From an uncultured Gammaproteobacteria bacterium (lineage in GTDB: Bacteria; Patescibacteriota; Patescibacteriia; UBA11705), in the NCBI GenBank assembly GCA_964413735.1, contig CAYPSS010000001.1:246149-309697 (forward strand): DNA of 63,549 nucleotides. The letters run 5' to 3'. A model generated the notes under the pieces. The model was not told the DNA's origin. It worked only from the letters and a program-made list of their open reading frames with translations, and searched no databases. Shown here piece after piece: positions 7,874 through 62,407 of the stretch (positions within the stretch are counted from its first letter, which is position 1; each line of letters opens with the position of its first letter). A program made the position numbers and the translations under genes.

Positions 7874-7886
7874 TGTTCTTTTACAA
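7874..7886 (+). promoter_or_regulatory. boxA-like leader motif (TGTTCTTTTACAA) between promoter and GGAGG
   Basis: Follows TTGACT-17-TAATAT; followed by a small hairpin and GGAGG; one of about 18 similar sites. Confidence 0.55.
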
Positions 7887-7912
7887 AGGCTTGAAAGCCT
7901 GGGAGGTTAATA

Positions 7913-10033
7913 ATGATTGATTATTCCAATCCGAATAATGAATATGTTTTGGTGACGCATAGTCAGGGTGATGTTGATTGTATTGTGGGGGTGTATCGCT
8001 TTCTTCACGCTGTTGGGATTTCGGTTTTGGATGCATTGCTTGGAAAGCGAGTGCGTTTTGAATTTGTTTATCCGGGTGACAAAATTGAAGATAATCGGAC
8101 CGATGAAGTGGTAATTCACATTGATACTGGTGGTAAGTTTGATCCGGAGAATGGTTTTTTTGATCATCATTTCGAAGGTATAATGCAATACAGTGCAACT
8201 CATTTAATTGATGAATATTTTCAAGGAGATAGCTTTATTGTTTTCCCAGATGATTTGTATGCTGTTATCCCAAACTCAAAGTATTTGATGGAATGGATTG
8301 AAAGAGATACGGAACAAGTTTTGGATTTTTATTTGATGCAGGATAAAAATGTGCATGATGCTGTTAAAAAAAACCCAATCCTTCGTAAGTGGTTGATCTC
8401 TACAATTCGTTCTAATTTTATAGAGAAATTCCTGTGTAAATTGAATTCAAGTAAGGCAGAATGGTTGGAGGATTTGACAGTCTCTATTACTGTAAAATCA
8501 GAGACTCTCCCGAGTTTTGTTTTGAATGAAATTCAATCAATTGTTGAGTATAGATGTGAGTTAATGAAATCACAGGCTCGTTCAATGTTTTTGCATCAAT
8601 CCCTTGAAGGAAAAAAATCAACAAATCCTGAATGGCTGAATGATTTGGTGGAATATGCGAATCTGGTTGATTCGCCGGCTACTTATCCCAAGTTGTCCGA
8701 AGAAAGCTATGCGTTTATTCGGGAAACCAATGAACGCGTGGTTGAGGAAATTGGGGATCTTGGTCGTTTTTCACCTCAGTATGCCGGTCCGACGGATTTC
8801 GCGAAGTTGGTGCGCCAATTTCCGGGAAATATGTCGGATGTGGATCGGATGAAGCTGGGACTCGTGACTTTGGAATCTTGTTTGACGATGATGAGAAATA
8901 ATGAAGAAAATGCGGAAGAGGATGATGCTCTGGCCGAAGTGAAGATGTTGTTGGATTCAAAGGAAAAAGAAACGCGAATTCCGGAACAGACTTTCACGGC
9001 TGATAGTGAATTTTTCGGCGAGCTGGGTCGGATGCAAAATCGACTCTTGTTCGTCCTGCCTTATTCACCCATGGCCGTGGAAATTCTGGCGATTAAGCTG
9101 TTGCTTCACATTCGTAGAATTCCGATTAATTCAAATAATGTGGAATTTGTGTTTGTGGATGAGAAGGAACAATTTTTCAGTGATAAATATGGTGATGATT
9201 GGGCAGTAATTCATTTGAATTGCGGTCGGGTTTGGAATCCGAAGTCGTTGCACTTGGATACCAATGCGGAGAATTGTCCGTTTGATAATATCGTTCAGGC
9301 GATTTACGCGTTGGCTTTCCACAATGACAATCGGACGCCGAATTATATTCGTAATTTGGTGACCTACATGAATTTCTATCAATCTGATTTGAGTGAGATG
9401 GTCATTTGTGAGGCCGATTGGGACAAGTTGAATGCCTATCATCGCGAACTGGAAGAAAAGGTTCCGCGACCGGTGCGATTCAATTTAAACTTTCGGGCGC
9501 CGGTGCATTTGCCCAGAGTAATTGATGATTTGCCTTCGTATTTGAGCGATCAGCAAATGATGCAGATTGGCTTACAGTTGTTTGATGGATTTTTTGAAGA
9601 AATGAATACGCGGACTTCGGTGTTTAACCATTTGGAGCTCAGTCAGCGGGAAACCGGCAACGGTTTGACCATGGCTTGCATTCCTCCTAATGGTTTTAAC
9701 ACCAAGACTTTGCGGGGGATTTTGCGGAAGAAGTTCAGGCAAGAGCTTGATGTGTATGTGGCGGAGTTTGAAACGGATGAAACCGATAATGATCGGAATG
9801 CCCGTTTCTGCGTCACGACGGTCATCAATTCGGCCGAGGTGGCAGGTATGGATGAGCTGATGGAACGCTTGTACCGGCTCGATCCGGAACTGCGTCGTCC
9901 GTCGGGTGGTATGCAGGGAGACATTTACCTGCATCACAGCGCATTCGTGCTGTACATCAATGGCCGAACCAGCCTGAAGCTGGCGCAGGTGTGGGAGACT
10001 ACTCTCAAGACTTTGCGTCGGGTGACTCAATAG
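7913..10033 (+). CDS. 706-aa protein with a MYG1/DHH-like phosphoesterase domain and a degenerate second copy
   Basis: VTHSQGDVD and HIDTGGKFDPENGFFDHH resemble MYG1-type motifs; internal repeat VIHLNCGRVWNPKSLHLDTN. Confidence 0.55.
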   Translation: MIDYSNPNNEYVLVTHSQGDVDCIVGVYRFLHAVGISVLDALLGKRVRFEFVYPGDKIEDNRTDEVVIHIDTGGKFDPENGFFDHHFEGIMQYSATHLIDEYFQGDSFIVFPDDLYAVIPNSKYLMEWIERDTEQVLDFYLMQDKNVHDAVKKNPILRKWLISTIRSNFIEKFLCKLNSSKAEWLEDLTVSITVKSETLPSFVLNEIQSIVEYRCELMKSQARSMFLHQSLEGKKSTNPEWLNDLVEYANLVDSPATYPKLSEESYAFIRETNERVVEEIGDLGRFSPQYAGPTDFAKLVRQFPGNMSDVDRMKLGLVTLESCLTMMRNNEENAEEDDALAEVKMLLDSKEKETRIPEQTFTADSEFFGELGRMQNRLLFVLPYSPMAVEILAIKLLLHIRRIPINSNNVEFVFVDEKEQFFSDKYGDDWAVIHLNCGRVWNPKSLHLDTNAENCPFDNIVQAIYALAFHNDNRTPNYIRNLVTYMNFYQSDLSEMVICEADWDKLNAYHRELEEKVPRPVRFNLNFRAPVHLPRVIDDLPSYLSDQQMMQIGLQLFDGFFEEMNTRTSVFNHLELSQRETGNGLTMACIPPNGFNTKTLRGILRKKFRQELDVYVAEFETDETDNDRNARFCVTTVINSAEVAGMDELMERLYRLDPELRRPSGGMQGDIYLHHSAFVLYINGRTSLKLAQVWETTLKTLRRVTQ

Positions 10034-10038
10034 ATTTT

Positions 10039-10061
10039 AACGAAGCTCAATGAGCTTCGTT
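10039..10061 (+). terminator. Intrinsic terminator hairpin
   Basis: aacgaagctc-aat-gagcttcgtt plus T-tract just after the TAG. Confidence 0.8.
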
Positions 10062-10130
10062 TTTCATTTTTAAAATTGCGATTATTGAATAAATAAAGTA
10101 AAATGAAGGTAATAAAATAACCAAATACTT

Positions 10131-61412: not shown

Positions 61413-61419
61413 AAAATTT

Positions 61420-62109
61420 TTAAGAAAAACGCCTTAAAAATTCTTCACGATTAATAGTCATCATTTTTATTGGACGATTCTCTGTAGAAAAATGTTCGGC
61501 TTTAATATTTTCAGGGACATCTTGTATTTGAAATCCAAATGATTCTAGCATTGTGCTAAATGTTTTTGTTGCTAAAACCCATGAAGTACCGGTTATGAAT
61601 TTTATGCTTTCATCACTTTTCATGATTTGTGCCAGTTTTTTCATCGCATCAATGAACAATCCAGGTAAGTTTTCTTTCACTGAATATGATGGTGCAAGAT
61701 GAAGATGAACTGAGTCTTGATGCTTACCATAAGAAATTCTTTCATTAAGTGGAATAAATCCGGCTGTTTCCATCCAAGCTTGAGCTTCAATGTCTTCAAA
61801 AAGTTTTGTTTTTGTCAGTTTTAGGGTAATAATTGGTTTGAGGGCAGTTGTCATACATTCCATAAATTGTTTTTTGTCAGTAATAGTAGTACATTTTTGA
61901 ATTTGAGTGGAAAAAGTTTCAGGCGTAATATTAGGTAATTCAGCCGCAATTGTTGGATGTGCTAATATTCTTGATATTCCTTCTATTGTTTTATTTATTC
62001 TAGAAGGATCGGTCTGTAATTCCATATATAGATGTTCGAGAGTCTGATCAATTTGATCCTGAATTTTTTGGGCTAAGGTTTTAATGGTTGGTGGTTGTTC
62101 GAAATTCAT
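61420..62109 (-). CDS. Hypothetical protein
   Basis: Long open frame, 7 nt from the radical SAM gene; probably co-transcribed. Confidence 0.72.
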   Translation of the reverse strand: MNFEQPPTIKTLAQKIQDQIDQTLEHLYMELQTDPSRINKTIEGISRILAHPTIAAELPNITPETFSTQIQKCTTITDKKQFMECMTTALKPIITLKLTKTKLFEDIEAQAWMETAGFIPLNERISYGKHQDSVHLHLAPSYSVKENLPGLFIDAMKKLAQIMKSDESIKFITGTSWVLATKTFSTMLESFGFQIQDVPENIKAEHFSTENRPIKMMTINREEFLRRFS

Positions 62110-62186
62110 AAAATTGTATTATTTGCATTATTATATTACTTTATTTTTAGATAAAAATCAAAAATTCACTTAACAGTGAAATTTTA

Positions 62187-62263
62187 TGGTGGGCGGCACG
62201 GGACTTGAACCTGTGACCTCACGGATGTGAACCGTGCGCTCTAACCAGCTGAGCTAGCCGCCC
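62187..62263 (-). tRNA. tRNA-Val(CAC)
   Basis: Reverse complement GGGCGGCTAGCTCAGCTGGTTAGAGCGCACGGTTCACATCCGTGAGGTCACAGGTTCAAGTCCCGTGCCGCCCACCA. Confidence 0.96.
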
Positions 62264-62407
62264 AAAAAATATTTTATTGAAATAATGAGCTTATTGTATC
62301 TTAAATTATACGTAATTTCAATATGATCATTTGGTTTGACTTTTGATAGGGATTGTGATAAAAATTATTGTTGTACCTTTTATTTGTTCTCCTAAGAGGA
62401 GGAGAGG

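Follow-up and report, generated by a model that had tools for sequence, protein, structure and literature searches.

A 13-nucleotide (nt) motif of consensus TGTTCTTTAACAA is present in the leaders of about a quarter of the genes of the window analysed in this work, that is, the whole stretch of 63,549 nt of DNA from an uncultured bacterium of the Candidate Phyla Radiation (CPR)/Patescibacteria. The motif is located directly before the Shine-Dalgarno (SD) sequence of the genes that carry it (the carriers), it resembles the boxA element of ribosomal RNA (rRNA) leaders, it recurs before SD-led genes in related lineages, and several copies of its core occur in a locus for a predicted non-coding RNA that is conserved in a close relative. 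The explanation preferred here, although with somewhat less than even confidence, is that the motif would act as a single-stranded RNA operator beside the SD sequence, read by a sequence-specific trans-acting factor that controls translation.

The consensus was obtained by alignment of 18 sites, all of which were found at the coordinates and strands given in an earlier note on this DNA, and about six additional sites were detected in the window. In the alignment C5 is invariant (18/18), T3 is found in 17 of the 18 sites, position 2 is always a purine with G2 near-invariant, positions 6-8 are T or C only and the 3' half is A-rich. Because several of the sites belong to paralogous genes (the pairs 14036/14920 and 27163/27649 and the triplet 38867/39306/39707), the number of independent leaders is about 12. 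The start of the motif lies at a median distance of 24 nt from the ATG (within 20-26 nt in 15 of 19 sites) and its end is separated from the SD sequence by 0-3 nt in most leaders, in agreement with the previously described position just upstream of the ribosome binding site. The distance from the -10 box is more variable (4-20 nt). About 11 copies come after an extended -10 box of the TGnTAAAnT type that has a TTGACA -35 box as its partner, and the location just past the -10 box that had also been described holds for about 11 leaders (4-9 nt), but not for the sites 7874, 62385, 34532 and 37939 (10-20 nt) nor for the site 24277, which has no -10 box. Matrix matches with a score of at least 10 amounted to 28 in the window versus 18.9 +/- 4.4 in Markov shuffles, and 11 of the 13 top matches sit 23-39 nt upstream of a start codon on the same strand. 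The enrichment is thus positional and not global, with a small surplus of matches over the shuffles and a non-random placement before start codons. The order of the letters counts beyond base composition, as indicated by the near-invariant G2, T3 and C5 and by the maintenance of G2 in the repeat RNA described below.

The genes of the window are split by the motif into two classes, as the earlier note had claimed, although the dividing line is not the one proposed between orphan and housekeeping genes; the real divide is between SD-led and non-SD genes. When a matrix-free pattern (R-T-Y-C-Y-Y-Y within -45..-12, with a chance occurrence of about 5% per gene) was used, it was found in 18 of 30 SD-led genes versus 2 of 52 non-SD genes. 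The leaders of the ribosomal, uvr, nrd and sod genes were confirmed to be devoid of the motif, and these same genes also lack an SD sequence. The description of the carriers as orphans is inexact, since it does not apply to the genes encoding an HD-domain protein (33460-34518) and a HAD hydrolase (32553-33365), nor to the gene starting at 62408, whose product has 44 homologues (37-73% identity) in Parcubacteria and Pacebacteria. The carriers had also been considered foreign open reading frames (ORFs), which is contradicted by their G+C content (0.369 versus 0.365 in core genes), by their synonymous codon usage (correlation with core genes, r 0.97) and by the lack of any significant PHROG match among the 10 carriers searched, with one borderline match (E 8.4e-4). 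A phage origin of the carriers was rejected on the basis of these same data.

Core genes of the window (for example 46451-57192, 16945-19755 and 19820-20398) are devoid of SD sequences, with the sole exception of tuf, a core gene with both an SD sequence and a partial motif. The sequence before their start codons is AT-rich (aatatATG) and frequently contains a -10-like box at a distance of 6-25 nt, a layout suggestive of leaderless or SD-independent initiation. Part of the Parcubacteria is reported to lack the anti-SD sequence (PMC9297842), and the SD-free core genes of the window agree with this loss.

The distribution of the motif was analysed in relatives of the host. In a collection of species-representative genomes, the best identity to the HD-domain protein was 37-47%, with matches in Paceibacterota, Azambacteria, Nealsonbacteria, Shapirobacteria and Saccharibacteria; because the nearest representative genomes are so distant on this protein, the host is placed in a poorly sampled CPR/Patescibacteria lineage, closest to Parcubacteria. 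A metagenome scan carried out with the family of the 62408 protein yielded 58 Parcubacteria loci, and the leaders of the family itself were removed before counting. In these loci matches to the motif matrix were found in 10 of 73 SD-led leaders versus 6 of 295 non-SD leaders (p 1.6e-4), and with a stricter threshold in 7/73 versus 1/295. The top enriched words upstream of the SD sequences were TGTTC (5-fold), TTAACA (10-fold) and TAACAA, so that both halves of the motif are enriched in relatives; leaders such as TGTTTTTTAACAA, AGTTTTTTAACAA, CGTCCCTTAACAA and TATTCATTAACAA are examples. The link was weaker in other CPR loci (7/57 SD-led versus 7/237 non-SD), no general motif was found in distant CPR classes, and the motif was present in none of the 78 SD-led leaders of low-GC Firmicutes control loci. 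Given the positive result in Parcubacteria and the 0/78 in Firmicutes, the association between motif and SD is a property of the clade and not of SD leaders in general, and it is densest in the lineage of the window itself. In relatives the motif is placed 20-50 nt downstream of the promoters, yet still directly before the SD sequence. L001, which is syntenic, and L002 are close relatives. In the leader of the HD-domain gene TGTTCTTT is unchanged in the window, L001 and L002, while the stretch downstream and the SD sequence diverge, and both leaders recovered from L002 (those of the HD and HAD genes) retain the motif. In the 62408 family, the orthologous leaders retain G..C.TT.A.AA also when pyrimidines are replaced by A (GCACATT); de novo Gibbs sampling on the leaders of this family recovered only the SD sequence. 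The genes located behind motif-like leaders in L009 showed no homology to the paralogue family of the window.

These data also bear on the possibility that the motif has no function and came along when a promoter-leader cassette was duplicated among paralogues, or is a by-product of composition. Several sites do belong to tandem paralogues that share their terminators as well (38.1-39.7 kb, 14.0/14.9 kb and 27.1/27.6 kb). However, the roughly 12 independent units have unrelated promoter spacers and ORFs, the motif is found again in front of unrelated SD-led genes of independent Parcubacteria from metagenomes and is absent from AT-rich Firmicutes SD leaders, and the HD-gene leader has retained TGTTCTTT between diverging flanks, so that lack of function is considered extremely unlikely.

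A high-scoring copy of the motif at 23575 (minus strand) is located outside any leader. It is one of five GTTCY cores contained in 57 nt (23563-23619, minus), a cluster that is unique in the window and was reached in 0 of 300 Markov simulations. The cluster lies within a candidate non-coding RNA of about 175 nt (23495-23668, minus), predicted to be an independent transcript and composed of a 5' hairpin, an unstructured centre (folding z -0.29) with the five cores and an intrinsic terminator (predicted stem 23499-23517, minus). The predicted promoter (TTGATT-17 nt-TATAAT, 23674-23702, minus) is conserved in L148 and L149, two contigs of a relative in which the protein encoded by the flanking GtrA gene is 82% identical. 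In this relative (L148/L149), the first 68 nt of the RNA are 97% identical versus 77-84% for the flanking coding DNA, the motif cores are kept in varied forms (GTCCTT, GTTCTC, GATCTTT and GTTCTT) and the sole ORF of the unit is broken by indels in L148. An Rfam E-value search of the region 23400-23800 gave nothing credible, a match to LhrC being noise (18 bits versus a threshold of 110, on the other strand). G2 is kept in the internal copies of this repeat RNA, where no transcription start is possible, and it therefore belongs to the motif itself instead of only marking where transcription begins. Because one RNA carries several copies of a motif that is found beside the SD sequences of many messenger RNAs (mRNAs), its architecture is like that of CsrB, and the repeat RNA is best read as a decoy for the putative motif-binding factor.

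A role of the repeat RNA as a CU-rich small RNA that targets SD sequences was considered and rejected. Its pairing is stronger with SD-led than with non-SD initiation regions (-10.65 versus -7.05 kcal/mol), and the former value is weaker than that of its own shuffles (-12.5 +/- 0.84 kcal/mol). As a separate observation, four GTTCTT units that repeat about every 9 nt (AAGTTCTTTAGTTCTTCCGTTCTTCAGTTCTTAAG) form an intergenic array at L110:7734-7762 (minus), on a metagenome contig of Parcubacteria. This array, at which neither a clear promoter nor a clear terminator was detected, is a possible analogue of the repeat RNA.

The element could alternatively be a DNA operator, in which case a transcription factor bound to TGTTCTTTAACAA at +1 to +13 would repress the promoters and 23563-23619 would be an array of DNA sites. 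A location 4-9 nt past the -10 box, as found in about 11 leaders, is a classic repressor position, and the cluster lies between two divergent promoters. Nevertheless, the spacing to the ATG is tighter than that to the -10 box, every copy is on the sense strand and none is palindromic, and in relatives the place before the SD sequence is kept with the motif 20-50 nt away from the promoter. In addition, three copies (24277, 24859 and 25106) are operon-internal and have no promoter; action at the RNA rather than at the DNA level is therefore indicated, and an operator of this kind is regarded as very unlikely.

Regarding the similarity to boxA, the window consensus agrees with the working consensus of this element, GYTCTTTAANA (PMC5725501), at 11 of 11 positions. 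With the window matrix, the rrn boxA of Escherichia coli scored 13.6 and the Bacillus-type boxA 13.0 (in both cases the fraction of random 13-mers scoring as high is 1e-5), and the boxA of CPR 16S leaders scored 7.6 (fraction 7.5e-4), so that the boxA-like character noted previously extends over the full length of the motif. The CPR form, TGATCTTTAAAAT, was found after a boxB-like hairpin in the 16S leaders of two loci (L008:12241-12253 and L013:13273-13285) and shares 10 of 13 positions with the window consensus. The rRNA leaders of CPR thus conserve boxA, and Nus factors are therefore probably operative in this group. The E. coli suhB gene has a boxA at 6 nt from the SD sequence that represses translation through NusB/E, and the double mutation C4T/T6C abolishes the recruitment of SuhB (PMC5725501). 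The context of the motif in the window, with its end 0-3 nt before the SD sequence and its start at a median of 24 nt from the ATG, corresponds to this type of repression, so that the second option of the earlier note, genes kept translationally silent, is a viable one. Because the motif consensus equals that of boxA, NusB-S10 would be the lead candidate for the reader, albeit a rather doubtful one; a cold-shock protein or S1 is a possible alternative. An ORF for S10/NusE (rpsJ) is present at 45946-46275, its role being deduced from its location between tuf and L3 without a family search, and family searches of 50 ORFs of the window revealed no Nus factor other than this positional rpsJ. An rRNA operon was found neither in the window nor in the close relatives.

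Of the two CPR 16S loci with boxB-like hairpin and boxA leaders (L008:12174-13900 and L013:13230-13440), L008 has in addition a leader-trailer helix and a terminator directly past the 16S gene, which is thus unlinked to the 23S gene, and the 3' end of its 16S rRNA is the canonical CCTCC anti-SD. Pairing of the motif with 16S rRNA was discarded, since the complementarity to the L008 copy was no better than that of shuffled motifs.

The carriers are organized as compact units. They have strong SD sequences (GGAGG and relatives) and their own consensus promoters, except for the operon-internal copies, their ORFs are short (median about 120 codons), and an intrinsic terminator is found at 120 nt or less past the stop codon in 17 of 20 carriers versus 10 of 62 other genes, these 17 being short monocistronic units with their own promoter and terminator. 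The earlier note had proposed that a Nus/boxA regime shields foreign ORFs of poor translation against premature termination, taken here as processive antitermination that counters Rho, a proposal favoured by the boxA-like sequence, by the conservation of boxA in CPR 16S leaders, with Nus factors probably operating in the group, and by the presence of rpsJ in the window. Such protection does not fit these units, which end in strong terminators and are followed by a gene with its own promoter, and this architecture makes processive antitermination unlikely. The transcripts are short with very strong SD sequences and should therefore be well translated, the genes are not compositionally foreign, and the motif occupies the very 5' end and is not accompanied by boxB or boxC, save for a hairpin after the site 7874. 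On balance, this function is judged highly improbable.

The pyrimidines of the motif could also pair with the SD sequence of their own leader, forming a cis anti-SD hairpin that would mask the SD sequence (as a thermometer or for tuning) and/or shield the 5' end against RNase J, with no need for a protein reader. The minimum-free-energy fold (RNAfold) pairs motif and SD sequence in about 15 of 18 leaders (-1.6 to -9.7 kcal/mol), with perfect stems of 6-8 bp in some of them (for instance 13230, 36991 and 62385). Positions 3-8 hold nothing but pyrimidines, except that the weak site 23749 has an A at position 4, the motif begins at the predicted 5' end in most leaders, a CPR relative has RNase J, and the L001 orthologue of 39707 turns a U.G pair into C-G. 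However, pairing with the own SD sequence (-5.77 kcal/mol) was not stronger than with the SD sequences of other genes (-5.92 kcal/mol, permutation p 0.67), in a comparison of limited power because all SD sequences are similar; shuffling the letters of the motif (10-13 letters) gave equally stable structures (mean z -0.29, p 0.32), and the paired fraction of the SD sequence was 0.50 in native and 0.47 in motif-shuffled leaders (p 0.26). The conserved G2, the AACAA half and the enrichment of TTAACA in relatives are left unexplained by pairing, as is the persistence of G..C.TT.A.AA in the 62408-family leaders despite the A in place of pyrimidines, and the repeat RNA has no SD sequence in cis and is surpassed by its own shuffles in pairing with SD regions. 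Base composition yields some pairing, but it does not account for the order of the letters. The hairpin as the reason for the motif was rejected by the swap, motif-shuffle and small-RNA shuffle tests, and the explanation as a whole is considered unlikely, with a possible side contribution of the structure.

A positive role of the element was also evaluated. The motif would then be an enhancer or standby site, a U/A-rich, unstructured element to which S1 or the 30S platform binds, or which a cold-shock protein keeps open, so that initiation is boosted, with the repeat RNA as a competitor for ribosomes or for the cold-shock protein. The consensus promoters and strong SD sequences of the carriers suggest a design for high expression, the motif is directly 5' of the SD sequence, where S1-type enhancers lie, and the binding preference of Bacillus subtilis CspB, GTCTTTG/T (PMC1904285), is close to the G(T)TCTTT core. 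On the other hand, the invariant C5 and the conserved G2 are atypical of generic A/U-rich enhancers, the length of 13 nt and the AACAA half exceed a cold-shock protein site of 6-7 nt, the core genes lack the motif, including those for ribosomal proteins, for which the highest expression would be expected, and no such element was found at SD-led genes in the Firmicutes control loci. An enhancer is accordingly an improbable explanation, although not one to be neglected.

In the operator model preferred here, the motif (in RNA, UGUUCUUUAACAA) would be the first half of a 5' leader of about 25-30 nt, ending 0-3 nt before an unusually strong SD sequence, and would mark a class of self-contained units made up of a TTGACA/extended -10 promoter, the motif, the SD sequence, a small ORF and an intrinsic terminator. 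A sequence-specific trans-acting factor would bind the motif RNA and, because the motif abuts the SD sequence, the bound factor would determine the access of the 30S subunit in the entire SD-led class at once, and thereby how well its mRNAs are translated and how long they last. The repeat RNA at 23495-23668 (minus), with its five tandem cores, would titrate the same factor, following the logic of CsrB with CsrA. The mode of control would be like the repression of E. coli suhB by boxA and NusB-S10, and not antitermination.

Several points weigh against this model. None of the 18 sites matches the boxA consensus perfectly, 7 of them having one mismatch and the rest 2-4, and the matches to boxA in the window with at most one mismatch (17) are as many as expected by chance (18.5), although 7 of these 17 near-matches sit at leader position. 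Five sites have a C where the T6C change of the suhB double mutant (C4T/T6C) falls, and the rRNA leaders used for comparison belong to distant CPR lineages and not to the host itself. Most copies in the repeat RNA retain only the 5' half of the motif, and this RNA was found in one close relative only, on two contigs (L148 and L149). A pyrimidine-rich element beside an SD sequence can always pair with it, a cis contribution being possible. Finally, the transcription starts and the small RNA are predictions.

The sites on the plus strand are the following. The motif TGTTCTTTTACAA (7874-7886), in the leader of a 706-aa gene (7913-10033), is atypical because it lies 39 nt from the ATG and is followed by the hairpin AGGCTTGAAAGCCT (7887-7900) and then by the SD sequence GGGAGG. 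This order of motif and hairpin was found at no other leader; in lambda nut sites boxA is likewise followed by a hairpin. TATTCCCTAACCA (13230-13242) precedes a gene whose start is probably GTG 13255, and AGTCCTTTAACAA is present twice, at 14036-14048 and 14920-14932, in the leaders of the paralogous genes 14068-14820 and 14950-15660. The copy TGCACCTTGATAA (23749-23761) is doubtful and the weakest of the listed sites (score about 4), AACCCTTCAAAAGGAG at 23783-23798 being a better candidate for the same gene. Three copies are operon-internal: AATCCTTTAACCG (24277-24289), with neither promoter nor -10 box and 24 nt before ATG 24301, the motif-like TTCTCCCCCAAC (24859-24870), before the SD sequence of 24885-25130, and TGTTCTTTCTTCT (25106-25118), 24 nt before ATG 25130. 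The last two and a partial form at 25520 (plus) were absent from the earlier list. The copies TGTTCTTTTCAAT (27163-27175) and CGTTCTTTCCAAA (27649-27661), both 5 nt past the -10 box, belong to the leaders of 27186-27536 and 27673-28071, respectively, TATTCCTTAAACA (31674-31686) to that of 31697-32017 and TATTCTCCATAAC (36991-37003) to that of 37015-37353. A partial variant that was likewise missing from that list, GATTCTGGGCCACAAAAC (44715-44732), lies 5 nt past a TTGGCT-17-TAAAAT promoter and before the SD sequence of tuf, and TGTTCTCCTAAGA (62385-62397) is found in the leader of 62408-63274, a member of a DUF3164-like family conserved in Parcubacteria.

On the minus strand, AGTTCTTTTTGAG (12682-12694) is placed 6 nt past the -10 box in the leader of 12674..12222. 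This gene contains an in-frame TAG at 12600, after 25 codons. With this codon ignored, the frame is that of a paralogue of 12756-13145, and a pseudogene, read-through or recoding may be the explanation. GGTTCCTTAAAAC (33379-33391) precedes the HAD hydrolase gene (33365..32553) and TGTTCTTTATCAA (34532-34544) the HD-domain gene (34518..33460), in whose leader a GAAC...GTTC sequence was considered as a LexA/Cheo box and discarded, since its spacing is wrong and it is not conserved in L001. TGTTCCTTAAAAC (37941-37953) is located in the leader of 37929..37453, and it is followed by the group of tandem paralogues: the variant AGTCCCTTTCCCC (38430-38442, leader of 38412..38086), which was not in the earlier list, AGTTCTCCAACTA (38865-38877, leader of 38853..38509) and AGTTCTCCAACCA (39304-39316, leader of 39290..38949), all of them 4 nt past the -10 box, and TATTCTTTAACAA (39707-39719, leader of 39695..39387), 5 nt past it.

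The window, with a G+C content of 36%, contains a long ribosomal-protein/EF-Tu/SecY block, uvrA/B/C, nrdAB, sodA, ahpC, perR, ruvA, comEC, adk and map, and many small ORFs without Pfam family in a Pfam search are interspersed among these core genes. An Rfam scan of the entire window at the gathering threshold detected only transfer RNAs. ComEC is split in two overlapping minus-strand ORFs (2390-4575), of which 3229-4575 corresponds to the N-terminal membrane part and 2390-3232 to the metallo-beta-lactamase part. The ORF 60126-61412 (minus) encodes an unusual fusion, in which a HypC/HupF-like segment (residues 1-67) forms the N terminus of a HydE-like radical SAM protein. In the region 54819-55909 the presumed S5 and L15 ORFs, assigned by position and without a family search, adjoin and leave no space for L30, which is a known trait of CPR. 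Upstream of the minus-strand uvrB gene, an intergenic stretch of about 300 nt (36656-36950) is made up of short tandem repeats: TATTCCC x3.6 (36663-36687, abutting the uvrB ATG), a 9-mer x5.9 (36723-36775) and a 17-mer x1.9 (36791-36824). At least the ATG-proximal 100 nt or so of this region, with the TATTCCC and 9-mer arrays, is identical in L001, and the TATTCCC units are similar to the 5' half of the motif site 13230.

Another conserved element was found in leaders orthologous to that of 62408. It consists of ..CCCTGCCACGAGGGnnnCGTGG.. followed by GCACATTGAAAGGA and the ATG, it lies about 50 nt upstream, and it is present in about 13 of 44 distinct leaders (L099:1975-2037, L111:4410-4471, L112, L113, L125, L123, L118, L093, L095, L104, L120, L129 and L132). 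A CCACG/CGTGG hairpin in this element shows compensatory changes in 3 of 4 pairs, and a CCCT/AGGG pseudoknot arm is invariant and therefore unproven. The element gave no Rfam match and the 62408 leader of the window itself does not contain it; it could be riboswitch-like.

Most CPR/Patescibacteria are uncultured and almost nothing is known about their gene regulation. In its most complete form, which we consider rather unlikely to hold in all its parts, the proposal would describe a CPR host with SD-free core genes in which nearly all SD-led, lineage-specific genes are under an operator derived from boxA or mimicking it, a Nus or other protein blocks the SD sequence, and the decoy RNA releases the regulon. 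If true, about a quarter of the genes of the window would be controlled by a single short RNA element together with one small RNA, and these are the genes for the lineage-specific small proteins and membrane proteins to which the symbiotic lifestyle is attributed. Two initiation regimes would coexist in one genome, one SD-independent for core genes and another SD-led and operator-gated for accessory genes. The accessory proteome would be expressed in step with the free pool of a factor of rRNA transcription and, if NusB-S10 reads the motif, boxA control of protein-coding genes would be extended from a few autoregulated genes to a regulon equipped with a decoy. The element is short and well defined, and hence directly testable.

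Among known systems, the boxA of E. coli/Salmonella suhB (Baniulyte et al. 2017, PMC5725501) is also a single-stranded element of about 12 nt that fits GYTCTTTAANA and is placed near the SD sequence of a protein-coding gene (0-3 nt in the window, 6 nt in suhB), where a block of the 30S subunit is expected. The differences are that about 20 copies are present here in 63 kb versus 0-7 in a whole gamma-proteobacterial genome, that the window copies never have the perfect consensus and are located at the very 5' end of minimal leaders, that their targets are lineage-specific small proteins and not translation factors, and that a repeat RNA is present. In suhB, NusB-NusE (S10) binds the element, giving repression and Nus autoregulation, whereas the reader in the window is putative. 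The boxA of rRNA leaders is similar in sequence (10 of 13 positions in the CPR form, 12 of 13 in E. coli rrn boxA; PMC5725501), but it is found tens of nt downstream of the promoter, after a boxB hairpin and before long untranslated RNA, and it acts in antitermination and rRNA folding, whereas the window copies precede short translated ORFs with intrinsic terminators.

The CsrA/RsmA system with CsrB/RsmZ has in common with the window a short motif beside many SD sequences and a multi-copy non-coding RNA that could titrate the binder. Unlike in that system, the window motif is the pyrimidine-rich UGUUCUU instead of GGA, it is displayed in an unstructured stretch instead of hairpin loops and in five copies only, and its binder is putative. 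The Firmicutes small RNAs LhrC and RsaE/RoxS contain several redundant pyrimidine-rich motifs able to pair with SD regions. The small RNA of the window also has several redundant pyrimidine-rich motifs, but these are U-rich with a conserved G and not C-rich, and their pairing with SD sequences is below that of their own shuffles. Stem-loops at the 5' end that sequester the SD sequence are known as RNA thermometers and as 5' stabilisers, such as those of B. subtilis aprE and the cryIIIA STAB-SD leaders; the window leaders are likewise short, with a 5' end that can pair with the SD sequence, but this pairing is no better than composition predicts and shows no covariation. A limited literature search revealed no report of a comparable leader motif or regulon in CPR. 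Control of the boxA type next to an SD sequence is known, and what would be new here is the scale of a regulon and the putative decoy RNA.

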